Assembly (NCBI GenBank): GCA_965249725.1
Contig: CBDFMQ010000002.1
Location: 384,001-448,000, forward strand
Reading direction: 5' to 3'
Length of the DNA: 64,000 nucleotides
Source of the DNA: Longimicrobiales bacterium
GTDB taxonomy: Bacteria > Gemmatimonadota > Gemmatimonadetes > Longimicrobiales > Gaopeijiaceae
Under the pieces are notes generated by a model. The model saw only the letters and a program-made list of their open reading frames with translations. It ran no database searches and was not told where the DNA came from. A program made the translations under genes and the position numbers. This document shows, one piece after another, positions 9,896 through 26,950 of this stretch (the stretch's first letter is position 1; each line of letters opens with the position of its first letter).

Positions 9896-11590
9896 GTGGA
9901 GGCTGGCCTGAAGAAAGAAGCATCCCCAAGAGCCGAGTTCGGAAGAAGCGAGCTTCTCCGGTGGCTGTATGTGGGTCGCATGACTCTGGCCGCCGGCATC
10001 CTGCTCGGAATTCTCGTGGCATGGGAGTCGGCGCCGCCGCAGGCGAGCCGCACCGCGACGCTCATGTTCCTCGCGGCGTTGGCCGTGACGCTCGGTTCGG
10101 CCTGGCACACCCATTTCCGGGGCCGCTCCGTCGGCTACAACTTCCTCTACACTCATGTGATCCTCGACGTGGCGCTGGTGACGACCATCGTCCACATCAC
10201 CACGGTGGGGGACGAGGTGGTCTTCGCACCGCTCTACATTCTCGTGATCACCGAGGGCGCGCTCCTCCTGCCCCTACCGGGAGGGGTTCTGATCGGTGCG
10301 CTGGCGGCGATCGTCTACTTTGCCGACCTCGTATGGGGCCATCCGGGTGTCCCACTCTCCGGGGCGATCAGTCTCCAGATCGGCCTCTTCGCCGGTGTGG
10401 CGCTCATCACGGGCTGGTTGGGTGATCGGGTCCGCAGAACTGGCATGGCGCTCGGAGCGGTCAGGACCGAGCTGGCCCGCCTGCGCCTCGACAAGGGGGA
10501 CATCCTCGCCAACATCTCGACAGGCGTACTCACCCTGGTCGAAGGGGGCCGCCTAGCCTATCTGAATCCGGCCGCCGAGCAACTTCTAGGGTTTTCGCTG
10601 GAGCAGTGGGAGGGATCGGTCATCCTCGATGCCGTCGACGAGGTGGCTCCGGGCCTGGCCCAGGCTCTCCGAAGCACGGTGGAGCGGCGTCGGCCGGTGG
10701 TCCGCGTCAGAACGCCGGCCAAGCAGGCGGGGGGTCGGGAGACCACACTCGGTATCAGCACCACGGTCCTCGAGGGGCCCGAAGGAGAGGATCCGTCGGT
10801 AACGGCCATCTTCCAGGACATCACCGAACTCGAGCGGGTCGAACTGCTCAACCGCCAGAATGAGCGACTCGAGGCCGTTGCCGAGCTCAGCGCCTCGCTC
10901 GCTCACGAGATCAAGAACCCGCTTGCGTCCATCCGCAGCGCGGTGGAGCAGTTGGACAACGCTGCACTGGCCGGTGACGACCGGGCGCTTCTTCAGCGGC
11001 TGGTCCTTTCCGAATCGGATCGCCTGAGCCGATTGCTCAGTGAGTTCCTAGAGTTCTCGGGAATGCAGATCAATGCCGAGAGGGGAGTGGACTTCGCCCG
11101 CGTCGTGCGAGACGCCGTCGCGCTCGTGAAGCAGCATCCCGACGCCGAGGACGGCGCAACGATCGAGTGCGAGGGTCTCGACGAGCCGCTGACTCTACCC
11201 GGTGACTCCGATCTCCTCCACCGGCTGGTCTTCAACCTCATCTTGAATGCCGTTCAGTTCAGCGGGTCCGGGGGTTGTGTGAGGATCTCGGTGCAGGACT
11301 GCTCGGGCGCCGGAGAGCCTCCTGCTACCGGGGTCACCAATCCGGTTCGCTTGAGCGTCCAGGATTCCGGCCCTGGCATCCGGGCCGAAGACCTCGGGCG
11401 GATCTTCGACCCGTTCTTCACCACTCGGGAGGGGGGGAGTGGCCTGGGCTTGGCGGTGGTCCATCGGGCGGTCAAGGCACACGAAGGTACGCTCTTCGTG
11501 GAGGACACCGCCGACGGTGGAGCCCACTTTCTCGTCTACCTGCCGGGCACGCATAGTGCGCCCGTGCCGATCGGGAGTGCAGCATCATGA
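9896..11590 (+). CDS. pilS: PilS-like multi-TM sensor histidine kinase with PAS domain
   Basis: Several N-terminal TM helices, PAS (LAYLNPAAEQLLG), H-box LAHEIKNPL, N-box NLILNA, DSGPG, FDPFFTT, GSGLGL; immediately upstream of a sigma54 regulator in the pil locus. Confidence 0.85.
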   Translation: MEAGLKKEASPRAEFGRSELLRWLYVGRMTLAAGILLGILVAWESAPPQASRTATLMFLAALAVTLGSAWHTHFRGRSVGYNFLYTHVILDVALVTTIVHITTVGDEVVFAPLYILVITEGALLLPLPGGVLIGALAAIVYFADLVWGHPGVPLSGAISLQIGLFAGVALITGWLGDRVRRTGMALGAVRTELARLRLDKGDILANISTGVLTLVEGGRLAYLNPAAEQLLGFSLEQWEGSVILDAVDEVAPGLAQALRSTVERRRPVVRVRTPAKQAGGRETTLGISTTVLEGPEGEDPSVTAIFQDITELERVELLNRQNERLEAVAELSASLAHEIKNPLASIRSAVEQLDNAALAGDDRALLQRLVLSESDRLSRLLSEFLEFSGMQINAERGVDFARVVRDAVALVKQHPDAEDGATIECEGLDEPLTLPGDSDLLHRLVFNLILNAVQFSGSGGCVRISVQDCSGAGEPPATGVTNPVRLSVQDSGPGIRAEDLGRIFDPFFTTREGGSGLGLAVVHRAVKAHEGTLFVEDTADGGAHFLVYLPGTHSAPVPIGSAAS

Positions 11591-12948
11591 GCAGGGCAAC
11601 CAAGATCCTTTTGGTCGATGACGAGTCCGGCATCCTCGACACTCTACGCATCCTGTTCCGTGGCGAGGGTTACGACGTGGTCTCCGCCCTCAGCGGGCGC
11701 GAGGCCATGGAGGCTCTGCCGGAGCAGGCGCCGGACATCGTACTGACCGATATCCGTATGCCCGGTACGTCGGGACTCGAGGTGATGGCGAAGGCCCGTG
11801 AGATCGATCCTGAGGTAGCGGTCATCCTGATGACGGCACAGGCATCGCTGCAGTCTGCGGTGCGGGCGGTGAACGAAGGGGCCTACTACTACCTGCAGAA
11901 GCCGTTCGCCAACGACGAGCTGCTCGCCATCTGTCGGCGAGCCGCCGAGGCGAGAGAGCTTCGCGTCGAGAACAAGGCTCTCAAGAAGGAGATCCGGAGG
12001 CGTTCCAAAGCACCCAGCGGCAGGCCGGTCGGAATAAGCCGGTCGTTCGTTGAGGTGCTCCAGCTCGGAGAGACGGTGGCCCCGACCGAATCCACGGTCC
12101 TCATCAGTGGTGAGAGTGGGTCCGGTAAGGAGGTGCTCGCCCGGTACATCCACGGTCTGAGTGAGCGGTCCGAGGCGCTCTTTTCCTCGCTGAACTGCGG
12201 AGCGCTTCCCGAGGGCCTGCTAGAGAGCGAGCTGTTCGGGCACACCAAGGGCTCGTTTACGGGAGCCGTGAAGGACAAGGTGGGGCTCCTCGAGGCGGCC
12301 GAGGGAGGAACCCTCTTCCTCGACGAGATCGGTGAGATGTCTCCCGCCACGCAGGTGAGGCTACTGCGCGCCCTCCAGGAGCGGGAAGTCATCCCGGTGG
12401 GATCCACGGAGGCTGTTCCCATCGACGTCAGGATCATGGCTGCGACGCACCGGGACCTCAACGAGGAAATCCGGAAGGGCACGTTCAGAAGCGACCTCTA
12501 TTATCGGCTCAACGTCATCGCCCTTCACCTTCCTCCGCTCAGGGAACGCAGGGAGGACATTCCCCTTCTGGCTCATCACTTCCTCGATGCGATCATGGGT
12601 GAGGATGGTGACAAGATCCTCGGTGAAGAGTCCATGGAGGTCCTGTCCGCATATGACTGGCCGGGCAACGTCCGCGAACTCGAGAACGCCCTCGAGAGGG
12701 CGGCTGTCGTGGCGGAGGGGGCTCCGATCGGGCCCTCGCACCTGCCGGAGAGGGTCCGGCAAGAACACGCGCCTCCTCTGGTGAACGATCAACTGCCCCC
12801 GAACCCGTCCATGGAAGTCATCGAGCGCGCCTACATCCAATGGGTGCTCGTGGCGGAGGGAGGCAACAAGACGAGGGCGGCGGAGGTCCTGGGGATCGAC
12901 CCTTCCACGCTGTATCGCAAACTGAATCGATATGGGATCGAGGTCTAA
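11587..12948 (+). CDS. pilR: PilR-like sigma54-dependent response regulator
   Basis: Receiver (LLVDDE, TDIRMP), [39 protein letters not shown] and a Fis-type HTH; ATGA overlap with pilS. Confidence 0.85.
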
Positions 12949-12955
12949 TGTGAGC

Positions 12956-13816
12956 ATGCTTCAATTCCGCGAGGTCGATGCCAAGCGACACGACGATCTC
13001 GCGTGGGAACACGTGAAACTCTCCGTTGTCATTCCCGCTTACAACGAGATCAAGACGGTAGAGAAGCTGTTGCGGCGTGTGCGGGAGGTTCGACTCGACC
13101 TGGAGGTCATCGTGGTCGACGACGGGTCGACCGACGGTACCCGCGACCTGTTGCAGAAGCTGACCGAGCAGGGGCTCATCGATGTCCTGGTGTTCCAGGA
13201 GGTGAACAAGGGGAAGGGTGCGGCGCTGCGGGCGGGATTCGAGCGGGCGACGGGAGACATCATTGCCATCCAAGATGCCGATCTGGAATACGATCCCGTC
13301 GAGCTCCCCATGCTCATGGAGCCCATTCTGGCCGGGAAGGCCGACGCGGTGTACGGCTCCCGTTTTCTCGGAGGCCCACACCGAGTTCTCTTCTTTTGGC
13401 ACATGATGGGGAATCGGTTCTTGACTCTGCTCAGCAACATGTTCACGGATCTGAACCTCACCGACATGGAGACCTGCTATAAGGTCGTGCACGCGGATCT
13501 CCTGAAGAGGCTCCCATTGAGCGCCGACCGGTTCGGCTTCGAACCCGAGGTGACGGCGCGTCTGGCCCGGTCCCATGCGCGGATCTACGAGATGCCCATC
13601 AGCTACGACGGTCGGTCGTACGCGGAAGGGAAGAAGATCAACTGGAAGGATGGGGTGGCCGCCCTCTATTACATCGTCCGCTCCAATCTGCTGGGGCCCC
13701 GTTTGCAGCCGTGGCAGCCCCCGCAGGTCCAGCCCTGGGAGGGGCGCGCCCTCGCCGAGGGTAAGCACCCCGCTCTCTCGCCAGGCCCGGCCCCAGAGGC
13801 TGACGATCAAGGCTGA
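12956..13816 (+). CDS. GT2 glycosyltransferase, DPM1/Ppm1-like polyprenol-phosphate-sugar synthase
   Basis: [70 protein letters not shown]. Start uncertain (12932, 12956 or 13013). Confidence 0.85.
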
Positions 13817-13834
13817 CGAGGGCACCGCGTTCCC

Positions 13835-15661
13835 GTGATCGAGCCGCTGAGCATACCGCCGACGAGAGCCGCGGTTCTCATCTTCATCGCCGCCGTCGCG
13901 GCCTATGGCAACTCGCTCGGCAACGGCTACGCCTATGACGACGCGACGGTCATTGGTGGCAACCAGATCGTCACGGAGGGAAGGGTGAGGGACGCCCTGG
14001 GCGCTCCCTATTGGCCGGACATGGTGGACGGGATCGGGCTCTATCGGCCCCTAACGTCAGCCAGCTATGCCGCCGAGTGGCCCCTGTGGAACGGCCATCC
14101 CGCAGGCTACCACGCCGTCAATGTAGCCGTCCACGCCGCTGTCTCGATCCTTGTGTTCCTTCTGCTTCTCGGGCTTTCCGGACCGTTGCCCGCTCTCGTG
14201 GGGGGAGGGCTGTTTGCTCTGCATCCTGTGCATACCGAGGCCGTGGCCAATGTCGTAGGACGCGCGGAACTGTACTCTGCCCTCTTCGTGCTGGGGGCCT
14301 GCTTGCTGTTCATGCGAGGGGAAGGCGCGTCCCCGGCCCTCCGAGTCGGACGGCTCCTCGCTATCGGGATGCTCTTCCTGCTCGGTCTCGGATCCAAGGA
14401 AATGGCCGCCACCCTGCCGGCCGTGTTGGTGCTCCTTGCCTTGGCCAAGGAGGATGGTGACGAGAACCCCGTTGGTCGCGTCCTTTCGGATGCTCCGGTC
14501 TTGCTGCTCACCGGGGCTCTGCTCGCCGCGTTCCTGGGCTCTAGGATCCTGGTGCTCGGGTCTGTTTCGGGTGAACACCCCGCGGCGTACTTGGGGGGGC
14601 TGTCGACCGGACAGAGAATTCTCACGTCGCTGTCCGTCTGGCCCCACTACTTCCGGCTCCTGGTCTTCCCGCTCGATCTCTCGGCCGACTACGGTCCTGC
14701 CGTCTTGTTCCCGGCACTGACCTGGGGCCCCGATGTAATACTCGGCGTCGTAATGATCGCGGCCGCAGTTGTCGCAGCCCTTTGGCTGTGGCCCCGGGAG
14801 CCACTGGCGACGCTGGGCCTGTTTTGGTTCGGTGTGACGATCCTGCCCGTCACCAACCTCCTCATTCCGACGGGGATCCTCTTGGCGGAACGCACGCTCT
14901 ACCTGCCCTCGGTCGGGTGCGCCTTCATGATCGCCGGCCTGGTACGGTGGACGGCACGCGAAAGGCCGAGGTCGTTGGGCACGCTGCTGATTGTTCTGGC
15001 CGTGGTGGGTACCGGATTCATGACACGCACGGTTCTCCGGAACCCCTCGTGGGCGAGCACCTTCTCCATGTTGAGCACCCTGACCGAAGAGCACCCCGAG
15101 TCCTTCCTCGCCATACGGGCCCGGGCGCGGGGCTTGGACGAAGTCGGAGAAGTCGAGGCAGCGGCTCGCCACTACGAAGTCGCCGTAGAACTCGTCCCCG
15201 GCGAGTACAGCCTGCTCATCGAGGCGGCGCGTTTCCATGGGCGACACGGACGGTGGGCGATGGCAGAGCCGCTGCTCGCCCGAGCCATCGATCTGTTCCC
15301 GGCCCATCCGGTCGCCTGGCAGGTGCTGGCGGAGCAGAAGCTCCGGCAGGGCCTTGGGCGCGAGGGCCACAGCATCGCTCTTCGAGGCCTCTCCGTCGTC
15401 GGGACGAACAGGGATCTCTGGACGCTGGTCTCGGAGAGTTACGTGGCCAAGGGTGACTTCGAGGCGTCCGTTCGTGCGCGGTGGGCCGCGTTCGGTGCGG
15501 ATCCGCCGACCGCGGAGGCCTGGCGGCGCATGGCGCAGCTCATGGAGTTGGCCGAACGCCCGGTGGATGCGGCTGCGGCGTTGGAGCGGGCCCGCACATT
15601 GGAGGTTGGGGCTGCCGGTGCGACTCGCGAGGCCCCCACCGCGCCTGGAGCTCGCCGCTGA
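13835..15661 (+). CDS. TMTC-like GT-C membrane glycosyltransferase with C-terminal TPRs (copy 1)
   Basis: YAYDD after TM1, LYRPLT, HPVHTEAVANVVGRAEL, SKE, LVFPLDLSADY (DUF1736-like), LAERTLYLPSVG, RNPSW, then helical repeats. Confidence 0.85.
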   Translation: MIEPLSIPPTRAAVLIFIAAVAAYGNSLGNGYAYDDATVIGGNQIVTEGRVRDALGAPYWPDMVDGIGLYRPLTSASYAAEWPLWNGHPAGYHAVNVAVHAAVSILVFLLLLGLSGPLPALVGGGLFALHPVHTEAVANVVGRAELYSALFVLGACLLFMRGEGASPALRVGRLLAIGMLFLLGLGSKEMAATLPAVLVLLALAKEDGDENPVGRVLSDAPVLLLTGALLAAFLGSRILVLGSVSGEHPAAYLGGLSTGQRILTSLSVWPHYFRLLVFPLDLSADYGPAVLFPALTWGPDVILGVVMIAAAVVAALWLWPREPLATLGLFWFGVTILPVTNLLIPTGILLAERTLYLPSVGCAFMIAGLVRWTARERPRSLGTLLIVLAVVGTGFMTRTVLRNPSWASTFSMLSTLTEEHPESFLAIRARARGLDEVGEVEAAARHYEVAVELVPGEYSLLIEAARFHGRHGRWAMAEPLLARAIDLFPAHPVAWQVLAEQKLRQGLGREGHSIALRGLSVVGTNRDLWTLVSESYVAKGDFEASVRARWAAFGADPPTAEAWRRMAQLMELAERPVDAAAALERARTLEVGAAGATREAPTAPGARR

Positions 15662-17547
15662 TGCAGCTCTGGCGTTCCCCTTTCCAGCATGTCCGCACTG
15701 CGGCCTTCCTCGCGGCGGCGGTGGCGATACTCCTCTCGGCGAACAGCGTCCTGAATGATTTCGCCTATGACGATCGTCTCATCATCATCGAAAGCGAGTT
15801 GATTCAGGATCTCAGCACGCTGCCGGAGGCGGCCGTCTCACCGTACTGGCCGGGTGAGTTTGGAGAGGCGCTGGGATTGTGGAGGCCCGTTACGACCGGG
15901 CTCTTCGGCCTGCAGTGGGCGCTGTGGGGTGAGAACCCTGCTGCGTTCCATGCGCTGAACGTCCTACTCCACGGAGCCGTCACCGCCTTGGTGGTGCTGC
16001 TTCTCGCCGAACTCGCCCCCCTTGGTCTCGCCTTCGTTGCGGGCCTCTTGTTCGCCGTACACGCCGTCCATGTCGAGGCGGTTGCCAACGTGGTCGGATT
16101 GGCGGAGGTGCTGTCGTCGATCCTCTACCTCGGCGCGTGCCTCATCTTCGTGCGCCGACGGGAGCATCTCGGCCTCTTGCCGGGCGTGGCCATCGCAGGG
16201 CTCTTCGCCGTGGCGTTCTTGACCAAGGAGAGCGCCGTCACGCTACCAGGCGTGCTGTTCCTTTTGGACGGTGCTCGTGAGAATTCGAGCGCAAGGGGTG
16301 CACTCGCCTACCTGCGTCGCCGGTGGGCCATCTACTCCAGCCTTGTCGCTGTGGCCGCAGCCGTCCTCGTCGGACGCCAATGGGTCCTGGGTAGCATCGC
16401 CGACCCCCTGGCTCCCCTCGGCGCTGACCTACTCAGCGGCGCGGTGCCCCGGATCTGGACCGTGGCTTCTACCTGGCCGCACTACTTCCGCCTCCTGTTC
16501 TTCCCGTTGGACCTGAGCGTCGACTATTCCCCAGCAGTCATCCCGATCATGTTGGGGTGGAGTGCGAGTGGAATCTTGGGTGCGGTCCTCGTGCTGGCCA
16601 CGCTGGGTTTGGCGCTCCGGCTCTGGGGGCGCACGGAGATGGGACCCGACGCACATGTGGGTCGGGTCTTCTCGTTCGGAGTCCTCTGGGTGGTCATCAC
16701 GCTCTCTCCGGTCTCCAACGTCTTGTTTCTTTCCGGCGTGCTGCTGGCTGAGCGCACCTTCTACCTGCCTTCGGTCGGATTCGTGGCGGCCCTGGCCTGG
16801 ATGGGTCTGGAGCTGTACAAGGAGCGGCGGCACGTCGCCGTAGGCGCCTTGGTCGTGGTGCTGTCGTTGATGTCGCTCAAGACCTTCACCCGCAATGCCA
16901 CCTGGAGGAACAACGTCAGCGTGTTCGACGCGCTCCTCCGAGAGCACCCCGAGGCCGGGCGAGCTCAGTGGCTGCTCGGCGATGTCCAGTTCCCCATCGA
17001 CCGCAGCGCCTCCTTCCGCGCATACGGGATCGCCATAAGCCTGCTCGACGGCAGCTATCCACTACTGATGGAGGTGGGAAGGCGACTCCAGATCAGCGGA
17101 AGAACCGAGACCGCGAAGACCCTTTTCGAGCGGGCCTGGTCCGACTCGCCCGATCTCGGACCGGCGCCACAGGCTCTGGCCGTCATCTACCACCGGGAGG
17201 GCGACTTCGGGGCTGCGATCGAAGCGGCCAGTGCCGCATCTGCCGCGTACGGCGGGAGTGAGCCCGTTTCGAACCATCTGTGGGCGCACTCCTTGGCCGC
17301 AGAGGGTCGTTGGGCCGAATCGGTGACGGCCCGTTTCTTGACCATCGAATCCGGCGAGGGCCATCAATGGCAGCAATGGCTTTGGTTGGGTCAGGCCTAT
17401 GCCAACTCGGGCGACACGATTGGGGGACTTGCCGCTCTGGACAGCGCCCGAGTCCGCACGCAGCAGCCCACGAGCATCCGCCAAATTGACAGCATTCGAG
17501 CGACCCTCACGGACAGTGAAAATGCGACTGGTTCGCAGAATCCCTGA
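15661..17547 (+). CDS. TMTC-like GT-C membrane glycosyltransferase with C-terminal TPRs (copy 2)
   Basis: FAYDD, LWRPVT, HAVHVEAVANVVGLAEV, TKE, FFPLDLSVDY, LAERTFYLPSVG, RNATW. ATG 15661 overlaps the stop of copy 1 (TGATG). Confidence 0.85.
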   Translation: MQLWRSPFQHVRTAAFLAAAVAILLSANSVLNDFAYDDRLIIIESELIQDLSTLPEAAVSPYWPGEFGEALGLWRPVTTGLFGLQWALWGENPAAFHALNVLLHGAVTALVVLLLAELAPLGLAFVAGLLFAVHAVHVEAVANVVGLAEVLSSILYLGACLIFVRRREHLGLLPGVAIAGLFAVAFLTKESAVTLPGVLFLLDGARENSSARGALAYLRRRWAIYSSLVAVAAAVLVGRQWVLGSIADPLAPLGADLLSGAVPRIWTVASTWPHYFRLLFFPLDLSVDYSPAVIPIMLGWSASGILGAVLVLATLGLALRLWGRTEMGPDAHVGRVFSFGVLWVVITLSPVSNVLFLSGVLLAERTFYLPSVGFVAALAWMGLELYKERRHVAVGALVVVLSLMSLKTFTRNATWRNNVSVFDALLREHPEAGRAQWLLGDVQFPIDRSASFRAYGIAISLLDGSYPLLMEVGRRLQISGRTETAKTLFERAWSDSPDLGPAPQALAVIYHREGDFGAAIEAASAASAAYGGSEPVSNHLWAHSLAAEGRWAESVTARFLTIESGEGHQWQQWLWLGQAYANSGDTIGGLAALDSARVRTQQPTSIRQIDSIRATLTDSENATGSQNP

Positions 17548-17634
17548 CTCAGGGCCCCTGATCCGGGCCCGAATCCGAAGAGGGCAGTACCCCAAGTGGT
17601 TGCTAATAAAGTCCTTACGGGTCTGTACCACGTT

Positions 17635-17651
17635 TTGGACCCGGGCTTGCA
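17635..17651 (+). promoter_or_regulatory. Sigma54 (-24/-12) promoter of the pilin genes
   Basis: TTGGACCCGGGCTTGCA: GG at 17637-38, 10-nt spacer, GC at 17649-50 within TTGCA; about 60 bp upstream of the first pilin. Confidence 0.7.
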
Positions 17652-17712
17652 CTTGGAGAGCATCCTCTGAACGTCCATAAGTCAGAAGTGCCACCCACTA
17701 GCAGGAGAGTTT

Positions 17713-18111
17713 ATGATGCGGGACAACAAAGGTTTCACCCTCATCGAGCTGCTCATCGTGGTCGTGATCATCGGTATCTTGGCGGCTATCGCCATTCCGA
17801 AGTTCTCGGCGACGCGTGAGAAGGCTTATTTCGCGGCCATGAAGTCTGATCTCAAGAATCTGGCCAGTCAGCAGGAGATCTACTACTCCGACACGTACTC
17901 CTACACGTCGACCGTAGCGTCTCTCGGCTTCGTTACGTCTGACGGCGTCACGGTTGTGATCGCGGCTTCGACCGACGGTTGGTCGGCCTCTGGGGTGCAC
18001 GCTGCTCTCGCTGGTACTGAGGGCTGTGCGATCTACTACGGCAGTGGTCCGGCGCCCACGGTGGGTACTGCGACTCCCACTAGCCCCGGCGAGATGGCCT
18101 GCACTCAATAA
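17713..18111 (+). CDS. pilA: Type IVa major pilin
   Basis: Class III signal KG|FTLIELLIVVVIIGILAAIAIP, RBS AGGAGAG, upstream sigma54 promoter, two C-terminal Cys. Confidence 0.85.
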   Translation: MMRDNKGFTLIELLIVVVIIGILAAIAIPKFSATREKAYFAAMKSDLKNLASQQEIYYSDTYSYTSTVASLGFVTSDGVTVVIAASTDGWSASGVHAALAGTEGCAIYYGSGPAPTVGTATPTSPGEMACTQ

Positions 18112-18221
18112 CGCCGGCCAGCGAATACTAGGACGTGAGTTTCACGCCTAGCGAGAGCGTGGTCCGGGCGAGTCCCGGGCCACGCTTTCCGTCGGTTGGG
18201 CCCTTTGATCGGACAGACGAA

Positions 18222-18620
18222 ATGAGACAGACAATGCGGACGAGAGGCTTCACGCTGATCGAGCTCCTCATCGTGGTCGTGATCATCGGAATCCTGGCCA
18301 CAATCGCGATCCCCAAGTTCTCCTCGGTGCGAGAAAAGGCCTTCGTGGCCAGCATGAAGGCGGACCTCAAGAACCTGGCGACGCAGCAGGAGGTCTACCA
18401 CAACGGCAACTTCACCTTCAGCACCTCGTTCTCGAATCTGGGTTACGTCACGAGCAAAGGGGTGACCGTGAGCGTGAACGAGGCCACTGGAGATGGTTGG
18501 GCTGCTACTGCGGTTCACGGCGGCATGCCGGGTTCCCAGTGTGGTGTCTACCACGGGAACGCCACGCCGGCGAATGGTACGCCCGCCACGGCGATCAGCG
18601 TAGTGGGTTGCACTCCGTAG
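18222..18620 (+). CDS. Second type IVa pilin (tandem paralogue)
   Basis: RG|FTLIELLIVVVIIGILATIAIPKF; same architecture and Cys pair as the first pilin. Start 18222 or 18234. Confidence 0.88.
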   Translation: MRQTMRTRGFTLIELLIVVVIIGILATIAIPKFSSVREKAFVASMKADLKNLATQQEVYHNGNFTFSTSFSNLGYVTSKGVTVSVNEATGDGWAATAVHGGMPGSQCGVYHGNATPANGTPATAISVVGCTP

Positions 18621-18734
18621 CATGATCGCTGCTGTTGCAGCGGATCCTCCCGCTCCACACCTTTAAGCTCCGTTCATCCAAGGGCCTGAGCACCCGGCTC
18701 CGGCACCTTGCTCGTTCTGCCTCGGCCGACACCC

Positions 18735-20024
18735 ATGGCTTCCCCGACACCCCTCCGCCGTGAGTTGCTCGCCTCCCTGGGAGTCATCTTCGTAGGCGCT
18801 ACGCTGTTCTTGGCGGTGTCCCTCATGACGGTACTCCCCCTCATGCGGTCCACGGGAGGCACTCTGGCCTTCATCCTGACCATCGTCGTTGCCGACCTCG
18901 TCGCCTTCCTCGCGTTCGGCGGTTGGATGCTCAAGAAGGGCCTGATCAAGCCCGTAGAGGCGCTGGTCGATGGGGTCACGCGCATCACCGATGGGGACTA
19001 CCGGTACCGCGTGGAGCTCCCTGAGGGACTCGAGCTCCGGAGCATCACCGAGGGCGTGAACGTCATGGCCGATCGACTCATCGCCGAGCAGCAGGCCCTC
19101 GCCGATAACGTCGAGTCGCTCGATGACACCAACAGACAGTTGGTGGAGGCGCGAAACGAGGTGATCCAAGCGGCACGGCTGGCGTCCGTGGGGACGCTAG
19201 CGGCCGGCATCGCCCATGAGGTCGGGAACCCGCTGGCCGCGATCATCGCCTATGTGGATGTGATCGTCCGCCGGCTGGAGGCCGCTGGAGACGATCCCGA
19301 GTTGCTCCTTTCGATCCGATCGGAGGCGCAACGCATCGACGGGATCGTCAGAGGATTGCTCGACTTCGCTCGGCCCAAACCGGAAGAGGTCGGTCCGATT
19401 CACGTCGGGGAGGTCATCGGGACGGTGCGAGAACTGCTCGAGAATCAGGGCAAGCTGTCCAAGGTCGAACACGGGTGGCAGATCGATGAGGAGTGTCCAC
19501 CGGTTCTGGTCGCCGAGCAGCATCTCGAGCAGGTATTGGTGAATCTCTTATTGAACGCCTTGGACGCACTCGATGAACGCCCCGGTGGGGCGATCAAAGT
19601 GGCCGTCTGGAGTGAGGACGGTCCGGCTGCACACTTCCCTCGCCGCCGTGAAGACGATCCTCCTAGCATCAACTACATGCACCGGCGCAGAGTGGCTCAC
19701 GACTCCGAGGTCGAGGTCCTCGGCACGTTGGAGACGGCCCGGCGCATCGTCGTGATCACTGTGTCCGATAATGGGCCGGGACTCCCTGAATCGAGCACCG
19801 ACCATGTGTTCGATCCGTTCTTCACAACCAAGGAGCCGGGACGCGGGACGGGCCTGGGTCTCTTCATCTCGGCGCGCCTCGTTGGGGGCATGGGCGGCAA
19901 GATCGAGGTCGAGAACCAGCCCGGGGCCGGGGCCCGATTCATGGTACGCCTTCCGGAGGCCGTAGCGGCCGGTGTAATGTCGGAGAAAGCCGAATACTCA
20001 GAGTCAGCGGAGGAAGTAGAGTGA
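18735..20024 (+). CDS. HAMP-domain sensor histidine kinase (positional equivalent of PilS2)
   Basis: Two TM helices, HAMP, AGIAHEVGNPL, NLLLNA, DNGPG, FDPFFTTKEPGRGTGLGL. Confidence 0.88.
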   Translation: MASPTPLRRELLASLGVIFVGATLFLAVSLMTVLPLMRSTGGTLAFILTIVVADLVAFLAFGGWMLKKGLIKPVEALVDGVTRITDGDYRYRVELPEGLELRSITEGVNVMADRLIAEQQALADNVESLDDTNRQLVEARNEVIQAARLASVGTLAAGIAHEVGNPLAAIIAYVDVIVRRLEAAGDDPELLLSIRSEAQRIDGIVRGLLDFARPKPEEVGPIHVGEVIGTVRELLENQGKLSKVEHGWQIDEECPPVLVAEQHLEQVLVNLLLNALDALDERPGGAIKVAVWSEDGPAAHFPRRREDDPPSINYMHRRRVAHDSEVEVLGTLETARRIVVITVSDNGPGLPESSTDHVFDPFFTTKEPGRGTGLGLFISARLVGGMGGKIEVENQPGAGARFMVRLPEAVAAGVMSEKAEYSESAEEVE

Positions 20025-21409
20025 AGATCCTCGTCATCGATGACGATCAGGGACTCAGACGATCACTCTCGCTGATTCTCGACGAGGGGGGGCACGGCGT
20101 CGTGGTTGCAGCGAACGGTGCCGACGGACTCGCAGCCGCCAGGAACGAGAAACCCGACCTGATCCTCTGCGACGTGCGGATGCCTCAGATGGACGGGCTC
20201 GAGTTCCTGAAGCGGTACCAAGAGGAGGACGGCGGGGCGCTCGTCATCATGATGACCGCCTACGGTAGCGTCGATCTCGCCGTCAAGGCGATGACGGCCG
20301 GCGCGTACGACTACTTGGCCAAGCCTTTCGGTGCCGACGAAGTCCTGCTCACCATCCGGAAGGCGGAGGAGCGCGAGCGCCTTCGGGCCGAGGTGGGACG
20401 GTTGAGGGCCGAGGTCCGCTTTGAGCGTCGGATCGGAGACATCATCGCTCGATCACCGGCGATGATCCGGGCGATCGAGGTGGCCGACAAAGTGGCACGG
20501 CATCAATCGCCGGTGCTTTTGACCGGTGAGTCGGGGACCGGGAAGGAACTCATGGCCCGTCACATCCACCGCCAGAGCGATCGAGCCGACCTACCCTTCG
20601 TGCCCGTGAATTGTGGTGCGATCCCCGAAACGCTGCTCGAGTCCGAGTTCTTCGGTTATGTCCGAGGCGCCTTCACCGGTGCGGAACGGGACAAGGAAGG
20701 ACTATTCGAGATGGCCGATGGTGGCACCCTGTTCCTGGACGAAGTCGGGGAGTTGCCGACGGCGCTGCAGGTGAAGCTCTTGCGCGCCCTTCAGGAGGGC
20801 GAGATCAGACGCTTGGGCGGTGAGGGGACCACCACCGTGAACGTGCGGATTCTGGCCGCGACCAACACCGTGAACGTGCGGATTCTGGCCGCGACCAACA
20901 GAGATCTCGAGGCCGCGGTAAAGGCTGGCGAGTACCGACAGGATCTCTACTACCGGTTGGCCGTGATTCCCATACACCTTCCCCCGCTGAGGGAACGCAC
21001 GGAAGCGATTCCCGATCTCACCTATCACCTTCTCGAGCGTCTCCGCGAACGCCTGAACCTCGGGGTAGAGTCTGTGACCCCTGGAGCGATGAAGGCACTG
21101 TTGGCGTATCCGTGGCCGGGCAATATCCGCGAGTTGGAGAATGTGCTGGAGCAGGCGATCGTGCTCACCGAGGGAGACGCACTCGACGAGGAGAGCCTGT
21201 CCGGGCGCTTGGACGCTACCGACATGATACTCGAACCCGGCTACGCCTCGGACGATCTTTCTGTTAAGCGCCGGTCTGCCGAGCTGGAGAGCCAGCTCAT
21301 CCAACGCGCGCTCGAACGAACGGGTGGGAACCGCTCCAAGGCCGCGGCCTTGCTCGAGCTGTCACCACGTGCCCTGAGGTACAAGATCCAGGACTACGGA
21401 CTCGACTAG
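20021..21409 (+). CDS. Sigma54-dependent response regulator (positional equivalent of PilR2)
   Basis: Receiver [38 protein letters not shown]; contains an 11-aa internal duplication. Confidence 0.9.
20833..20898 (+). repeat. Perfect 33-bp in-frame tandem duplication
   Basis: CACCGTGAACGTGCGGATTCTGGCCGCGACCAA occurs at 20833 and 20866, encoding [11 protein letters not shown] twice. Confidence 0.95.
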
Positions 21410-21466
21410 AGTCGTAGGCCGCCTCGAGCATACCAACGCCCGCACTACCGCGACATCGTGTAAGCC

Positions 21467-21895
21467 ATGTGTCGCGGTTTTTCGATCCTTGAGCTGGTCG
21501 TCGCTCTCACGCTGATCGCAGTGGGCGTGAGTCTGCTGCTGCCGGCCGCCCGCCGAATCGATGAGCGACTCTCCGTCGTGGCGGCCCGCGAGGAACTCGT
21601 GGGCCTCATCATCCGGGCCCGTGGCCTCGCGCGCCTACACGGGGAGGCCGCCCTGGTCCTTGAGACAGGGCCTGCCAAGGCCTGGATCTCGGCGGGTGAC
21701 ACGATCCGCGAAATCATCGACCTCCGTGAGCTCCACCAGGCGGACCTGTTCATCTCCGGTGGGCGTGCCAGCGCTGAACTCCGTTTCGATGGCCTGGGCC
21801 TGGGGCGAATGGCGGCCCGCTCCATGACGCTGAGGCGAGGTCGCGCTCTGGCGCGCCTCGTGGTGTCGGCCTACGGCCGGATCCGGCGAGAATGA
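21467..21895 (+). CDS. Minor pilin, FimT/FimU (GspH)-like
   Basis: RG|FSILELVVALTLIAVG prepilin motif; LRFDGLG near the C-terminus; first of four pilin-like genes. Confidence 0.75.
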   Translation: MCRGFSILELVVALTLIAVGVSLLLPAARRIDERLSVVAAREELVGLIIRARGLARLHGEAALVLETGPAKAWISAGDTIREIIDLRELHQADLFISGGRASAELRFDGLGLGRMAARSMTLRRGRALARLVVSAYGRIRRE

Positions 21896-22233
21896 CCGAT
21901 AGACGTGGGTTCAGCCTGGTCGAGGTCCTGGTCGCTCTGGTCGTGCTCGAGATCGGCCTGCTCGGGGCGGTGGGTATGACTTGGCAGGCCCAACGGACGG
22001 TTCGGGCGACCGAGACGCACGAAGCGGTTACCCGGGCCGTTGAGGCCTTGGCGGATTCCCTGACCCGCGCCGGATGGACCGGACCGGGGCGCCGAGCAAT
22101 GGCCGGCGGGGAGTTGCGCTGGTCGCTCGCCGGGGCGGGAGTGGTCACGATCTCGTTCCAACGAGATCGTGAGTCGCGGCTAGAGGTTGGCCTCCCGGTG
22201 GGGGGCTCGGTTGGGGGTGCACGTGCTCCGTGA
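21892..22233 (+). CDS. Minor pilin, PilV-like
   Basis: RRG|FSLVEVLVALVVLEIGLLG; ATGA overlap with the previous gene. Confidence 0.75.
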   Translation: MTDRRGFSLVEVLVALVVLEIGLLGAVGMTWQAQRTVRATETHEAVTRAVEALADSLTRAGWTGPGRRAMAGGELRWSLAGAGVVTISFQRDRESRLEVGLPVGGSVGGARAP

Positions 22234-22951
22234 GCGCCGAGGGATCGCGGCCGCCGAAGCGCTCGTGTCCCTCCTGCTGGGACTGGCTTTGGTTGGACTC
22301 GGCTGGCGGGCGCTCTCGAGTCAGAGGGTCGTGGCCGGCCGCCTGGTCCACCGGATGGACGTGATCTCGGCCCGCAGGATGACGGCCGCCGTGATCGGGA
22401 GAGATCTCCGGCAGGGGGTGGCCGGTCGTGACTGGCCCGACCCCGCCGGCGACAGTCTTCCCCTGCGAGCCTTCCGGGGGTGGAGCTTGACTTGCTCCAG
22501 CGACCCGCTCCGTCCGGGTACAGCCGTAGTCGCCTACAGAGGTGAGCGATCTCCGAACCCCGCCAAGGACTCCGTTCTGGTCCTGACCGGGGGAGGGTGG
22601 CTGCCTGCCGACCTGGTGAGCAGAGTCGGGAAGGGCAAGGCGCTCTGTCCAACCGGGCTCGAGTCCGACGTGGAGCTGTGGACTCTGGATCCGCCTGTAT
22701 CCGGCTTCTTGATGCGCGTCTTCGAGCGCGGGAGCTATCACATCACCGATGGAGCCCTCCGCTATAGGAGAGGGAGGGGTGGTAGACAGCCGCTCACCGC
22801 CGAAGTGTTCACCAAATCGTCGGCCTTGAACGGGACCCACGGCCGGCTTCTGCTGACGCTGGCGAGCGGGCGGGACGTCTCGAGCGGCACGTGGATGGCG
22901 GAAATCGTCGTGTGGGCGCGGGAGGTCACGTCGTTCCCTATCGACGAGTGA
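22217..22951 (+). CDS. Minor pilin, PilW-like
   Basis: Degenerate prepilin motif RRG|IAAAEALVSLLLG, helix ending VIGRDLRQ; third gene in the cluster. GTG start inferred. Confidence 0.6.
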   Translation: MHVLRERRGIAAAEALVSLLLGLALVGLGWRALSSQRVVAGRLVHRMDVISARRMTAAVIGRDLRQGVAGRDWPDPAGDSLPLRAFRGWSLTCSSDPLRPGTAVVAYRGERSPNPAKDSVLVLTGGGWLPADLVSRVGKGKALCPTGLESDVELWTLDPPVSGFLMRVFERGSYHITDGALRYRRGRGGRQPLTAEVFTKSSALNGTHGRLLLTLASGRDVSSGTWMAEIVVWAREVTSFPIDE

Positions 22952-24111
22952 CCGCCGACCCGTTCCCACGAGTGACCCGCGGCCCGAGTCGACGTGCGAC
23001 GCGCGAGGGGGACGAAAGAGGCTACGTGCTGATCGTGGTCCTGGTTCTGCTCATGGCCACCACGGCCGCCGGGCACAGCCTCCTCGTGCTCGCCCGAGCC
23101 GAGCTCTCGGTTTCCGTCGCCCACTGGGCGGGTCTCGTTCGCCGCCTGGCCGCGGAGGGAGGTGTGCGACTCGCATCAGGCGGTATCGCGCGTATCGGGT
23201 CGCTTCCATTGAAAGCCTGGACCCCGGCTGGGGAGGGCATCATTCCGCCCGGGGCCCGATTCGCATCCACGGCGCTACGGCTCTCCTCGGAGGTCGTGCT
23301 GCTCCGTTCAGAGGCGAGGGTCGATCGGTTTGCCGGTACGCATGTGGTGCTGGGGGTCTATTGGGGGATGCATGCGGAAGCACGGGTCGGGGCCGCCTCA
23401 GGCATCGTGGTGAGCGGTGGGCCGATGATCCTGGGGGGTGGAAGCCGAATCGAGACGTCACGAGTCGGCGAAGCACCGCCGCCTTGGTCCGAGGCTCGTT
23501 GTGCCGAATATCGGCCGGGGCTCGACACGCTCTTCGGCGGTGGTGTGCCCGCCTGGGCGGATCTGAGGAAGGAGGGAGCGGCCTTCGGCTTCCTAGAAGA
23601 CCGGGCGATGGAGGGCGGACCTCTGGTACTGCCTTCCCTCGGACTTCTCGACCACGAAGCACTCTTGGAAGGGGCCCAGGTGTCGGCTCCGAGCCCGGCC
23701 TCCCCCGCACCGAGCAGAGTGGGACCGAGGTGCGATCAGACGTCTCCCCTGAACTGGGGGGCACCCATGGACCCGCTGGATCCATGTGCAGAGTATCGAC
23801 CCGTCGTGGTATCGGAAGGCCCACTGACCATGCGGGGCGGCGTAGGGCAGGGCGTGCTCCTGGTCGTCGGAGACGCCATCCTCTCCTCGGGAGCTCAGTA
23901 TTTCGGTGTGGTCGTCGTCGCGGGCGATCTCTCGGTTCGAAGCGGAGCCCGGATCAGTGGCTTGGTACGTGTCGGGGGGACCGTCTCGCTCGACGGCGGC
24001 TCCGAGGTCGTGGGCTCGTCCTGCGCGGCCCTCGCAGCACTCGAGTCCGCCGTGTCTCTGCAAGGCCTGATCCCGCTTCCGGAAGGGTTCTGGCTAGACG
24101 ACCCGTACTGA
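22948..24111 (+). CDS. Minor pilin, PilX-like, with C-terminal Gly-rich beta region
   Basis: ERG|YVLIVVLVLLM (no Glu5, as expected for PilX/GspK), ARxAAEGG-like RRLAAEGG; GTGA overlap. Confidence 0.6.
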   Translation: MTADPFPRVTRGPSRRATREGDERGYVLIVVLVLLMATTAAGHSLLVLARAELSVSVAHWAGLVRRLAAEGGVRLASGGIARIGSLPLKAWTPAGEGIIPPGARFASTALRLSSEVVLLRSEARVDRFAGTHVVLGVYWGMHAEARVGAASGIVVSGGPMILGGGSRIETSRVGEAPPPWSEARCAEYRPGLDTLFGGGVPAWADLRKEGAAFGFLEDRAMEGGPLVLPSLGLLDHEALLEGAQVSAPSPASPAPSRVGPRCDQTSPLNWGAPMDPLDPCAEYRPVVVSEGPLTMRGGVGQGVLLVVGDAILSSGAQYFGVVVVAGDLSVRSGARISGLVRVGGTVSLDGGSEVVGSSCAALAALESAVSLQGLIPLPEGFWLDDPY

Positions 24112-24219
24112 TCCGCCCTCTACTTCGATCGAGCTACGCCTCGGACTCCGTCGAATCTAATTGTGGCCCCGAAGTGGCGGTGTGCGTATCGTTTAGTGGC
24201 GCTTTGAGTGACGAATCGG

Positions 24220-24305
24220 GCGCCACGTCGGGCCCCGCGTAGGGCACCACGTCGAGCACCACGTCGAGCAGCACCGTCGAGCACCACCGTAGAGCATCAC
24301 CGGGA
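24220..24305. repeat. Degenerate 12-13 bp tandem repeat (about 7 units)
   Basis: GCGCCACGTCGG GCCCCGCGTAGG GCACCACGTCGA GCACCACGTCGA GCAGCACCGTCGA GCACCACCGTAGA GCATCACCGGGA. Confidence 0.75.
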
Positions 24306-24422
24306 GTCGGTTTCCCACAAATGGGGTTTTTGAGGGGGCATTTCTTTCCGCGTAGGGAAAGACTTGGCCGTTTTGAAGAGCGATTCGGGACGCGCCGGCC
24401 CGTACCTGATAGCATTTCGGTA

Positions 24423-24438
24423 TGGCACGGATCTCGCG
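24423..24438 (+). promoter_or_regulatory. Candidate sigma54 promoter upstream of pilM
   Basis: TGGCACG-GATC-TCGC: consensus -24 element and correct GG-N10-GC spacing. Confidence 0.55.
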
Positions 24439-24548
24439 AGGGAGCCTCCGGGTCGTTTCTCACGGACCAGGCGCGAGATTGGATGAGAATGATCGAAGTA
24501 TCATCAAATGTTTACCAATCTTTTGAATTGCGCTTCACGAAAAATCTC

Positions 24549-24578
24549 TTGACAATGCTTGGATTCTAGTGGTAACCT
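24549..24578 (+). promoter_or_regulatory. Candidate sigma70 promoter upstream of pilM
   Basis: TTGACA (24549-54), 18-nt spacer, extended -10 TG-G-TAACCT (24573-78), in an AT-rich region. Confidence 0.55.
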
Positions 24579-24631
24579 GATTCAGGTTTCAGATAAATAT
24601 ATGTTCCTGTGCCCCACAAGATGAGGGCTGA

Positions 24632-25669
24632 ATGGGCCTCTTCGGACGCAGCAAACAGTCGGTAGGACTGGATATCGGCAGCGGCTTTGTCAAAGTCGTG
24701 GTTGTCGATCATTCCGGTGACCAGCCCGAGGTTAGCCGTGTCGCGATGCGTCCGCTCGTAGCGGATGCGATCGTGGAGGGCGAGGTCATGGACCCCGGTC
24801 TGGTGGCCGACACTGTCCGAGGTCTCTTCCAGGAGATGGGCCTGAAGAGCAAAGACGTGATCACGGCGGTGGGGGGGCACGACGTGATCATCAAGAAGAT
24901 CGAGATGGATCGGATGAAGGAGTCCGACGCTCGAGAGGTCATCCGCTGGGAAGCGGAGCAGCACGTTCCGTTCGACATCAAGAGCGTCGAGTTGGATTTC
25001 CAGATTCTGAACCCCTTCGACGAGGGCCTCCAAATGGAGATCCTCCTGGTGGCTGCCAAACGGGAGCTCGTCGACAACAAGGTCAGCCTCCTCCTGGACG
25101 CCGGCCTTTCTCCAGTAGCCATCGACGTAGACGCCTTCGCGCTCCACAACGCTTTCGAGCACAACTACCCGGAGGCCATGGAGGGCATCGTCGCTTTGGT
25201 CAACGTCGGCCATGAGACGACCAACGTTAACGTGCTCGAGAACGGCAACCCCATCCTGACGCGGGACATCCCGTTCGGATCGAGGCGGGTGCGCGAGGAT
25301 CTGCAGAGAGAAAAGGGGCTCACGGCCGAGCAAGCGGAAGACGTCGTGCAGGGCCGAGAGGAACTTGCGGATCTGTCCACCCTGGTCGACGCGAGCGCAG
25401 ATGAGGTGGCGGTCGGAATCGAGCGGGCGTCTGCGTTCCTGATGACGAGGCAAGACGGTGGCGGCTTGGGGCGTATCTACCTGAGTGGTGGTGGAGCGCG
25501 GATTCCCGGCATGACCAGTGCACTGAGTACCCGCATGAACTTGGAAACCGACTTGGTGAACCCGTTCGAACAGGTCCCGGTACAGCCGGCGGCCTCGGAG
25601 ACGATCCTACTAGAGGAGGCGGCGCCGATGTTGCTGCTTCCCCTGGGCCTGGCCTTGCGGCCGCTCTAA
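24632..25669 (+). CDS. pilM: Type IV pilus assembly protein PilM
   Basis: VGLDIGSG, EAEQHVPFDI, LLVAAK, IDVDAFAL, LSGGGA, VNPF, LGLALR. Confidence 0.95.
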   Translation: MGLFGRSKQSVGLDIGSGFVKVVVVDHSGDQPEVSRVAMRPLVADAIVEGEVMDPGLVADTVRGLFQEMGLKSKDVITAVGGHDVIIKKIEMDRMKESDAREVIRWEAEQHVPFDIKSVELDFQILNPFDEGLQMEILLVAAKRELVDNKVSLLLDAGLSPVAIDVDAFALHNAFEHNYPEAMEGIVALVNVGHETTNVNVLENGNPILTRDIPFGSRRVREDLQREKGLTAEQAEDVVQGREELADLSTLVDASADEVAVGIERASAFLMTRQDGGGLGRIYLSGGGARIPGMTSALSTRMNLETDLVNPFEQVPVQPAASETILLEEAAPMLLLPLGLALRPL

Positions 25670-25688
25670 CTAGGACGAGGAACGCCCC

Positions 25689-26354
25689 TTGATCGAGGTC
25701 AATCTCCTTCCCGGAGTAAAAAGGCGCGCCACGAAGAAGGGCCGTGGCGGGCTTCTTTTCTCCATTCCGAGCATTTCGGCCATTCCGGCCGATCCGTATA
25801 TCCTCGGGGCTATCGCGACGGTGGTTGTCACGGTGGGGTTGCTGGGGTGGTGGTATCTCGGTCTTTCCTCGAGCACGGAAGAAGTCGAGGTGGCCCTGGT
25901 CGAAGCCGTCAGTGATTCCGCCAACTATGCGGATCTCATTCAACGGAATGAGCAGCTGACCGCACGCCGTGATTCGATTGCCGAGAAGGTCGACATCATT
26001 CAGGAGATCGACGCGGGACGGTACATCTGGCCCCATGTACTCGATGAGGTGGCCAGAGCTCTGCCGGACTATACGTGGCTCTCCCAGGTTCTCCAGGTCA
26101 CCGTAGGCGAGACCATCGAGTTCCAGATTCACGGCAAGGCCGGAAACAACTTCGCCCTGACCTCGTTCGGTGAGGCGCTCGAGGGGTCTCCGTTCATCAG
26201 GAACGTGGCGTTGGTGCAGACGGAGCAGGTGCTCGAGCCCACGGGCCAGCTCGTCTTCGTCTTCCAGTTGGACGCGGCATTCGAAGTTCCGCCGATGGAG
26301 CTTCTGGAGACGGTCCCGCTTTTCGGGTCCAATCCTTTGGACGGTAATCGGTAG
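25689..26354 (+). CDS. pilN: Type IV pilus assembly protein PilN
   Basis: N-terminal IEVNLLP motif, one TM, coiled coil, LPDYTWL. Confidence 0.9.
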   Translation: MIEVNLLPGVKRRATKKGRGGLLFSIPSISAIPADPYILGAIATVVVTVGLLGWWYLGLSSSTEEVEVALVEAVSDSANYADLIQRNEQLTARRDSIAEKVDIIQEIDAGRYIWPHVLDEVARALPDYTWLSQVLQVTVGETIEFQIHGKAGNNFALTSFGEALEGSPFIRNVALVQTEQVLEPTGQLVFVFQLDAAFEVPPMELLETVPLFGSNPLDGNR

Positions 26355-26362
26355 GCGACGAC

Positions 26363-26950
26363 ATGGCTCTGATTCCTGAAGATTCGAAACAGAAAAACGC
26401 CCTCGCCGGCATCGTTTTCTGCCTCGTGGCGCTGTACTTCGCCAATAGCTTGTGGTACAGCGGAGCCAAAGAGGATCTCGCAGCGCAGCAGGCGCGCCTG
26501 GAGAACCTCGATACGCAGAATCGCGTGGCGCAGACCCTAGCGATCAGCGGTGGCCGGGACCTCGAAGAGCGCATGGCGGTCTACGAGCGACACATCTCGC
26601 AGCTCGAACAGTTGATCCCCGAGTCGGGTGAGGTGCTGACCCTACTCGCGGAGATGAACCGCGTGGCCCGAGACGTGGGAGTCGATCTGGACCTGATGCG
26701 GCCCGAGGCGAGCGAGCCCGGTGCGTTCTATACCAAAGAGACCTTCGAGATTCGGGTCCTCGGCGACTACCACGAAGTAGGCCGGTTCTTGACACGAATT
26801 GCCTCACTTCCGCGGATCATCACGCCGAGCGACCTGCAGATCGAACCGTACGCCGACCAGAGGGGGGTGAGCGAATACCAGGCCCCCATACAGGTCACCT
26901 TCCGAATCCAGACGTATGTGGTACCGGACCGTGAGGGGGGAGGCCCATGA
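26363..26950 (+). CDS. pilO: Type IV pilus assembly protein PilO
   Basis: TM plus coiled coil, LIPESGEV, FY, GDYHEVGRFLTRIASLPRII. Confidence 0.9.
   Translation: MALIPEDSKQKNALAGIVFCLVALYFANSLWYSGAKEDLAAQQARLENLDTQNRVAQTLAISGGRDLEERMAVYERHISQLEQLIPESGEVLTLLAEMNRVARDVGVDLDLMRPEASEPGAFYTKETFEIRVLGDYHEVGRFLTRIASLPRIITPSDLQIEPYADQRGVSEYQAPIQVTFRIQTYVVPDREGGGP

Follow-up and report, generated by a model that had tools for sequence, protein, structure and literature searches.

A candidate pilin O-glycosylation cassette with TMTC/TfpW-family transferases at the pilR-pilA junction of a Longimicrobiales bacterium

We analyzed a stretch of 64,000 nucleotides, referred to as the window, from a Longimicrobiales bacterium (Gemmatimonadota; contig CBDFMQ010000002.1 of assembly GCA_965249725.1, positions 384,001 to 448,000). 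Between pilR and pilA it contains a cassette of three genes, encoding a GT2 glycosyltransferase and two GT-C membrane proteins with tetratricopeptide repeats (TPRs), for which a first-pass annotation had proposed a complete pathway of pilin O-mannosylation akin to that of the animal TMTC proteins. Judged by their sequences and a structure model, the two GT-C proteins are true TMTC-family homologues with a GT-C fold, and the link between such transferase genes and pilA is conserved far beyond chance. The cassette is likely to serve the O-glycosylation of pilin in the periplasm from a lipid-phosphate-linked monosaccharide.

Gene order and regulation at the pilR-pilA junction

The features are compiled in Table 1, and their order is the one that had been claimed, namely, a GT2 gene and two coupled GT-C genes between pilR and two pilin genes. 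The GT2 gene starts 7 nucleotides (nt) past the stop codon of the regulator gene and is followed, after a gap of 18 nt, by the gene of GT-C paralogue a, whose stop codon overlaps the start of paralogue b by one base (TGATG). The transferase genes lie upstream of pilA, with 166 bp between the stop codon of paralogue b and pilin 1. The paralogues share 39% identity across 506 columns and are the only two copies found by tblastn in the genome. The pilS and pilR labels were assigned from domains and gene position: the 6TM_PilS domain of the kinase scored 23.9 bits, below the cut-off of 27, and orthologues of the PilR-like regulator adjoin pilA in relatives (57 to 73% identity). The PilW- and PilX-like labels were assigned by position alone.

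Table 1. Features of the pilS-to-secretin region of the window
Feature	Position	Strand	Remarks
PilS-like sensor kinase (context)	9896..11590	+	HisKA, HATPase_c, PAS; start position uncertain
PilR-like sigma-54 response regulator (context)	11587..12948	+	Response_reg, Sigma54_activat, HTH_8
GT2, probable polyprenol-phosphate monosaccharide synthase (donor maker)	12956..13816	+	PF00535, 122.8 bits
TMTC/TfpW-family GT-C + TPR, paralogue a (608 aa, P0001)	13835..15661	+	
TMTC/TfpW-family GT-C + TPR, paralogue b (628 aa, P0002)	15661..17547	+	
Sigma-54 (-24/-12) promoter-like site upstream of pilin 1	17636..17651	+	GG-N10-GC match
Major type IV pilin 1, likeliest acceptor	17713..18111	+	PF07963
Type IV pilin 2, possible acceptor	18222..18620	+	PF07963
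Downstream pilus genes (context)	18708..29117	+	Second kinase/regulator pair, FimT/PilV/PilW/PilX-like, PilM, PilN, secretin

The sequence GG-N10-GC, which we take to be the sigma-54 consensus, was found upstream of the first pilin gene in 28 of 36 loci with a transferase (5.7 expected from shuffles) and in 22 of 26 loci without one (3.7 expected). Since such a site stands before pilin 1 and recurs among the loci, the cassette is probably cotranscribed with pilSR, and pilA probably has its own promoter, separate from the cassette. Contigs from public runs match the cassette with hardly any change; one of them spans positions 12900-17775 with 2 differences, although such a run may be the window's own source. 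Plasmid records gave no match.

Relationship of the transferases to animal TMTC proteins and TfpW

All hallmark motifs named in the first-pass annotation are present in both proteins, i.e., DD at positions 35/37 of paralogues a/b (D35-D36 and D37-D38), RP(L/V)T at 71/75, HxxHxEAVAxVVG at 130/134, PLDLSxDY at 279/282, and AERxxYLPS at 351/363, and TPR families score above their cut-offs in both. The DD pair lies in the first external loop, as is characteristic of the GT-C superfamily, and the DD, KE, and ER residues are each conserved in 100% of 86 Gemmatimonadota proteins. The Pfam profile TMTC_DUF1736, suggested as a check, scored only 14.0 and 17.1 bits for paralogues a and b, below its cut-off of 27, and at E ≤ 0.01 it matched 14 of the 70 Gemmatimonadota membrane domains from which we built our own profile, A2 (best E value, 1e-4). 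Homology at the profile level was nevertheless found: A2 retrieved the animal protein P0276 (E = 1.5e-57), which scores 108 bits on DUF1736 and whose relatives are named TMTC2. Alignment of A2 with this protein by hhalign gave a probability of 99.9% (E = 8e-34, 399 columns), blastp against it gave E values of 6e-22 (P0001) and 7e-19 (P0002), and a profile of 40 animal TMTC2 domains scored 115.6 bits for both window proteins. The latter thus group with TMTC proteins and not with other GT-C families: seven other GT-C proteins encoded in the same gene slot of relatives gave no score against the TMTC profiles. Neither window protein matched Wzy_C. Other bacterial proteins reached up to 208 bits on the animal TMTC2 profile versus 116 bits for the window proteins. 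Neither the membrane domain of the transferases nor TfpW is represented by an NCBIfam model; the named homologues are from Gemmatimonadota, JGI labels some relatives "protein O-mannosyl-transferase", and the Atlas has a eukaryotic DUF1736 cluster at 0.93 with 196 features.

The membrane domain of paralogue b was folded alone, resulting in a model with a pLDDT (predicted local distance difference test) of 91.1, in which 11 helices were seen by eye at the expected places; a plain hydropathy scan gives 8 and 9. A search of 48,161 chains with this model returned proteins of the GT-C fold at all top 20 positions (Z scores of 20.6 to 9.6), followed by an unrelated chain at 7.7. The best match was the oligosaccharyltransferase 3WAJ (Z = 20.6; root mean square deviation [rmsd], 4.4; 327 residues aligned), nearly tied with Pmt2 (Z = 19.1), and ArnT was also among the matches (Z = 17.3; rmsd, 5.0; 337 aligned). 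Foldseek matches of the whole proteins were filled by TPR proteins, and sequence searches of the PDB returned TPR proteins only or none. The structure searches contained no TMTC-family chain among their matches.

Animal TMTC1-4 (CAZy family GT105) are O-mannosyltransferases of cadherins with protein Ser/Thr acceptors, as stated in PMC11292533. Seven TMTC motifs, M1 to M7, are defined in PMC7801869, which models SHKSxRP and RxD as mannose contacts and mentions prokaryotic homologues with no role assigned there. The window proteins share with the animal TMTCs the membrane domain followed by C-terminal TPRs, homology over the full length of the membrane domain, the motifs M1 (DD), M4 (KExxT, in the form KExxxT), and M7 (ERxxY), and the sequence HPxHxEAVAxVVG. 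They differ in having fewer TPRs and in four of the seven motifs: (i) of M2 (SHKSYRP) just (Y/W)RP is kept; (ii) RxD of M3 is changed to (R/L/Q)AE, with RAE or LAE in the window proteins; (iii) DW of M5 is DY; and (iv) in PxxP of M6 the first proline is lost and the second retained. All 119 animal sequences contain the SHKSxRP motif, and none of the 86 Gemmatimonadota proteins does. Mannose as the transferred sugar was consequently not borne out, given the absence of this contact motif and a GT2 whose sugar is unreadable from sequence.

TfpW is known from Pseudomonas aeruginosa group IV strains/P. paraeruginosa. It has 11 predicted transmembrane segments, a DDX motif in loop 1, and a periplasmic TPR domain, and its gene lies beside pilA; it transfers D-arabinofuranose from a lipid-phosphate-monosaccharide donor to several Ser/Thr of pilin, mainly Thr64 and Thr66, and polymerizes arabinose (10.1101/2020.04.19.049825). 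Two versions exist according to PMC12369383. Among 34 Pseudomonas genomes, located via a published pilB primer, A2 matched 7. The match in genome G218 is a gene of 639-641 aa between a pilin gene and a TfpX/TfpZ gene (211.9 bits); the pilin is identical to a P. aeruginosa-group/paraeruginosa entry, the cluster of the 639-641 aa protein is named from P. paraeruginosa, the protein has the exact motif YX6PFX7P, and the genome carries DprE1/DprE2-like genes. Although no database names this sequence TfpW, we take it as TfpW because of its position, its motif, and the DprE1/DprE2-like genes; it may not be the version studied biochemically. The match of this protein to A2 (E = 3e-26) extends from position 6 to position 389 of the 391 in the profile, hhalign gave 98.7% (E = 1.5e-16, 378 columns), and blastp with P0001 gave E = 5e-11 (29% identity over 200 residues). 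The window proteins carry Y-X6-P-L-X7-P, with the same Y/P/P spacing as this loop-4 motif of TfpW; the exact YX6PFX7P occurs in 0 of 86 Gemmatimonadota and in 2 of 27 Pseudomonadota proteins.

TfpW is, by its sequence, a divergent member of the family of the window transferases. The first-pass annotation had set TfpW apart and knew of no characterized example; that view has to be given up, since TfpW, a homologue of the same architecture and position, is a known case of a GT-C+TPR enzyme that O-glycosylates pilin from a lipid-phosphate-linked monosaccharide. In common with TfpW, the window proteins have a GT-C+TPR gene adjoining pilA and DD in loop 1. In contrast to TfpW, they are encoded upstream of pilA, as two paralogues, with a linked GT2 donor synthase gene and no TfpX, in a genome without DprE1, and TfpW is a distant branch rather than an orthologue. 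The cassette would be TfpW-like in its working, while being neither a TfpW orthologue nor equipped with the TfpW donor pathway. PglL/TfpO (Wzy_C) also O-glycosylate pilins in the periplasm but belong to a different family with an oligosaccharide-PP-lipid donor; the two Wzy_C matches of the window genome are located away from the cassette. In five loci of Pseudomonas and other Gammaproteobacteria, one or two TMTC-family genes lie directly behind pilA with a GT2 gene nearby, where TfpX would be; one of these proteins (L227) is the sister of TfpW in the trees.

Three trees were computed (115-row quick, 47-row mixture-model quick, and 24-row careful), all of which place the class-level Gemmatimonadota group with animal TMTC2, a Planctomycetales protein, and metagenome proteins, with TfpW across a branch supported by 92, 93, and 95/93, respectively. 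With the 24 rows, a clade of the window group and TfpW was rejected by the approximately unbiased (AU) test (p = 0.004 with LG and 0.009 with the mixture model), and an exclusive clade of Gemmatimonadota and animal proteins was neither recovered nor rejected (p = 0.11 and 0.06). These trees are unrooted, represent eukaryotes by TMTC2 only, and in the 24-row set omit the other rows of the 47; the metagenome rows were picked via two motifs common to the window and animal proteins, so the sampling favors their grouping. In the phylogeny that had been suggested as a check, the window sequences thus lie closer to animal TMTC2 than to TfpW.

Linkage to pilA, the donor gene, and the pilins

A transferase match was found in 102 of 201 Gemmatimonadota genomes. 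When 80 of the 99 others were searched again by profile, 75 were still empty, and 73 of the 80 have PilM (the tallies of 201, 80, and 73 include the unpublished genome G156). We examined 60 loci from 53 genomes, chosen by score and contig size from the 150 matches listed of 212. Conservation of the linkage, as expected by the first-pass annotation, is evident: a major pilin gene lies within 600 bp in 39 loci and within 5 kb in 42, and 38 of the 53 genomes have a linked copy. A strict pilin pattern gave 35 of 60, missing four adjoining pilins that the wider pattern behind the count of 39 includes. As the window genome (4.16 Mb) has four such pilins at two places, we estimate the chance of adjacency at well under 1% per locus, with the qualification that kin are not independent. 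Adjacency survives inversion of the transferase gene in several loci; in seven, these genes are read from the other strand, divergently from pilA, and still lie within ~310 bp of it. Among 301 Pseudomonadota genomes, 34 had a match, with an adjoining pilin in 11 of 29 short loci, and an adjoining pilin was seen in 26 of 80 metagenome loci, mostly Gemmatimonadota-like by score. In three metagenome loci, animal-proximal TMTC-family genes have pilins of other sequence types in their vicinity; PilR-like genes are present in two of these loci.

Of 40 regions upstream of pilM, taken from 40 of the 73 transferase-free genomes with PilM, 26 include PilR, with a pilin no more than 800 bp away in 17 of them. 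Since pilR usually abuts pilA in genomes without a transferase, the cassette appears to be an accessory insertion between these two genes. A 48-row PilR tree requires at least 11 changes between presence and absence of the cassette, a pattern to be expected if it masks the cell surface. Other genes recurring in this slot, with or without a TMTC-type gene (ten loci and others), encode two further unannotated GT-C-like families with weak PMT_2 or GT87 matches, an S-adenosylmethionine methyltransferase, and a membrane protein of ~1000 aa with a spermidine-synthase domain; we regard the slot as a variable pilin-decoration island. Four loci share a second conserved site, at which a TMTC-type gene follows a GMP-synthase-like gene and precedes PTS IIA- and Dus-like genes (labels given by eye); a pilin follows the TMTC-type gene in one of them only (L055).

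The GT2 is, from its relatives, probably a polyprenol-phosphate monosaccharide synthase. Its best solved relative is the distant dolichol-phosphate-mannose synthase 5MLZ (E = 1e-19), followed by ArnC (6e-15) and the GtrB-type sll0501 (4e-9); the best NCBIfam model is AglJ (110 bits versus a cut-off of 325), and no NCBIfam cut-off is reached. It shares the fold family and the DADL motif with DPMS/Ppm1, ArnC, GtrB, and AglJ, and it differs from GtrB-type and other polyprenol-phosphate sugar synthases in reaching no family cut-off and in having no GtrA-like membrane part. The proposal of a DPM1/Ppm1-like donor synthase agrees with these data, and the gene travels with the transferases: an orthologue is present in 39 of 40 genomes with a transferase versus 16 of 40 without, consistent with a donor that the transferases need and other GT-C enzymes use as well. 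Within one genus of the family to which the window belongs, three genomes have the GT2 gene directly before the pilin with the transferase absent, and three congeners show the order GT2-transferase-pilin, amounting to a single-gene gain or loss with pilins little changed. A D-arabinofuranose route as in TfpW was rejected because no DprE1-type gene was found; neither ALO-family nor DprE1 matches occur in the window genome, which is 96% complete.

Both pilins had been described as rich in Ser/Thr. This holds for pilin 1, the source of both peptides quoted at the time, in which Ser plus Thr (S+T) account for 29% (22/75) of the residues beyond mature position 50, including a run at mature residues 54-60 (T54, S56, T58, S59, T60). 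Pilin 2, with 23% (17/73), is not enriched, since the pilins of 24 transferase-free genomes average 23.7%. Per genome, the S+T fraction was 0.271 for linked pilins (36 genomes) versus 0.237 (24 genomes; p = 0.007), with a strong gap in family f4 (0.274 versus 0.211) and the excess centered on mature positions 54-60 and 91. Two truncated, one fused, and two frameshifted pilins were excluded from this count. Outside the window, the genome has a second two-pilin pair (G000:C3:30396-31329; 85.6% identity over 978 nt) with no glycosyltransferase among the listed neighbors, whose copy of pilin 1 retains the Ser/Thr run; it is possibly an extra substrate, a silent cassette, or a source of pilin variation.

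Two observations concern other parts of the window. (i) The second sigma-54 regulator gene contains an exact 33-nt tandem duplication (20833-20865) that lengthens the AAA domain by 11 residues; it is missing from the contigs of all 4 public runs and is therefore probably an assembly artifact or a private variant. (ii) Positions 42798-51923 hold four tandem Ser/Thr protein kinase genes; TPRs occur in one of them and PD40 propellers in two.

Mechanism, alternatives, and significance

The explanation that we consider likely is O-glycosylation of pilin by the accessory cassette, with catalytic steps modeled on the two characterized relatives, TfpW (10.1101/2020.04.19.049825) and TMTC (PMC11292533); that both O-glycosylate protein Ser/Thr counts in its favor. 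The GT2 would use a nucleotide-sugar to charge undecaprenyl phosphate with a single sugar on the cytoplasmic side of the membrane, and the lipid-linked sugar would be moved across the membrane by some flippase or by the GT-C protein itself, as proposed for TfpW. Both GT-C enzymes, with their DD/KE/ER residues in the periplasm, would then transfer the sugar to Ser/Thr of membrane-held pilin subunits. The main target may be the Ser/Thr run of pilin 1 (mature residues 54-60), with the TPR domains picking the substrate. The two paralogues might act on separate sites or on separate pilins, or might divide priming and extension between them. The sugar-coated pilus could mask phage-binding sites or stabilize the pilin, as in Pseudomonas, where pilin glycosylation blocks phages according to bioRxiv 10.1101/150227.

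Several data weigh against this explanation. (i) No major pilin was found in the stretch around 18 of the 60 loci, of which 3 end at the contig edge directly after the gene, and genomes carry up to 7 transferase copies; some family members therefore have other acceptors. (ii) In the animal-proximal part of the family, a pilin was present in only 4 of 24 metagenome loci, many on short contigs, and the family is very large, with 125,939 clusters at E ≤ 0.001 and 43,616 at 1e-30. (iii) The S+T difference is modest: it is absent in family f5 (0.280 versus 0.270, p = 0.47) and slight to absent in genus g3 (0.28-0.29 with and 0.24-0.28 without a transferase), and in a phylogeny-aware test 2.3 of 5 pairs pointed the same way and 0.3 the opposite way (median p = 0.5), five pairs being too few for significance. 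(iv) The GT2 gene beside pilA in three transferase-free genomes serves something else too or is a relic. (v) The 96% complete genome has no GtrA-family match, and the pathway can thus no longer be called complete, as it had been, for want of a GtrA-type flippase.

The sugar is probably a hexose-type monosaccharide, and, given O-glycosylation of pilin, mannose is a possible though not the favored identity. A strict version, in which a single mannose from polyprenol-phosphate-mannose is placed on pilin beta-strands as by animal TMTC1-4, is a sub-case of the preferred explanation that we regard as doubtful. It draws on the greater proximity to animal TMTC2 (the 95/93 branch, with the TfpW grouping rejected at p = 0.009), on the solved relative of the GT2, on a ManC-like gene in the genome (238.8 bits, below its cut-off of 373), and on the missing DprE1-type gene, which speaks against the arabinose route of TfpW. 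The replaced SHKSxRP, RxD, and DW motifs argue against it, as do the distance of the GT2 match, with AglJ as best NCBIfam model, and the location of the Ser/Thr excess after the long helix, in a segment not shown to be a strand.

Alternatively, the enzymes might O-glycosylate many exported or membrane proteins in the periplasm, with pilin as one of them or none, and owe their placement to coregulation with pilSR. Unlinked copies in ~14 of 60 loci, the position of the cassette in the pilSR gene run upstream of pilA's own sigma-54 site, the nature of TPR domains as general binding modules, and the weak S+T signal in f5 are compatible with such a general role. It is improbable in view of the immediate adjacency of pilA in 38 of 53 genomes and its retention after inversion, the precedent of TfpW, and the S/T excess in one defined segment of the pilin. 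Use of the lipid-linked sugar to modify lipid A, lipopolysaccharide, or a different envelope glycan, in the manner of ArnT, is very unlikely: ArnT is among the structural matches, the GT2 resembles ArnC too, and further GT-C genes resembling PMT_2 or GT87 occupy this slot in relatives, but the seven other GT-C proteins from the slot do not score on the TMTC profiles, the sequence family and TPR domain match the protein-directed TMTC and TfpW, and a non-protein acceptor gives no reason for the adjacency of pilA. N-glycosylation of pilin sequons, suggested by the top structural match 3WAJ, three N-X-S/T sequons in pilin 2, and more sequons in linked pilins (1.38 versus 0.87), is hardly credible, as pilin 1 has no sequon, the counts are near those of shuffles of the same pilins (83 versus 71 ± 7), both characterized family members are O-linking, and Pmt2 nearly ties with the top Z score.

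With its homology to TfpW, the TMTC family gains a characterized bacterial member, and a substrate hypothesis becomes available for part of a family of >100,000 sequence clusters. The TfpW and TMTC literatures appear unconnected: in our search, which left subscription papers outside, no paper naming both was found, nor anything relevant linking TMTC and pilin beyond the TfpW and TMTC papers cited. About half of the sampled Gemmatimonadota genomes carry a transferase gene. In the widest version of the O-mannosylation proposal, which we hold to be unlikely, TfpW, the cassette enzymes, and animal TMTC1-4 would be one family whose ancestral job was glycosylation of pilin-like surface proteins, and cadherin O-mannosylation would derive from the bacterial branch that includes the cassette. 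The compact bacterial set of GT2, transferase, and pilin would be a convenient system for work on the enzymes that underlie human TMTC disorders, and, if TMTC-type O-mannosylation of pilins proves true, this three-gene system would be the first tractable model for TMTC catalysis.

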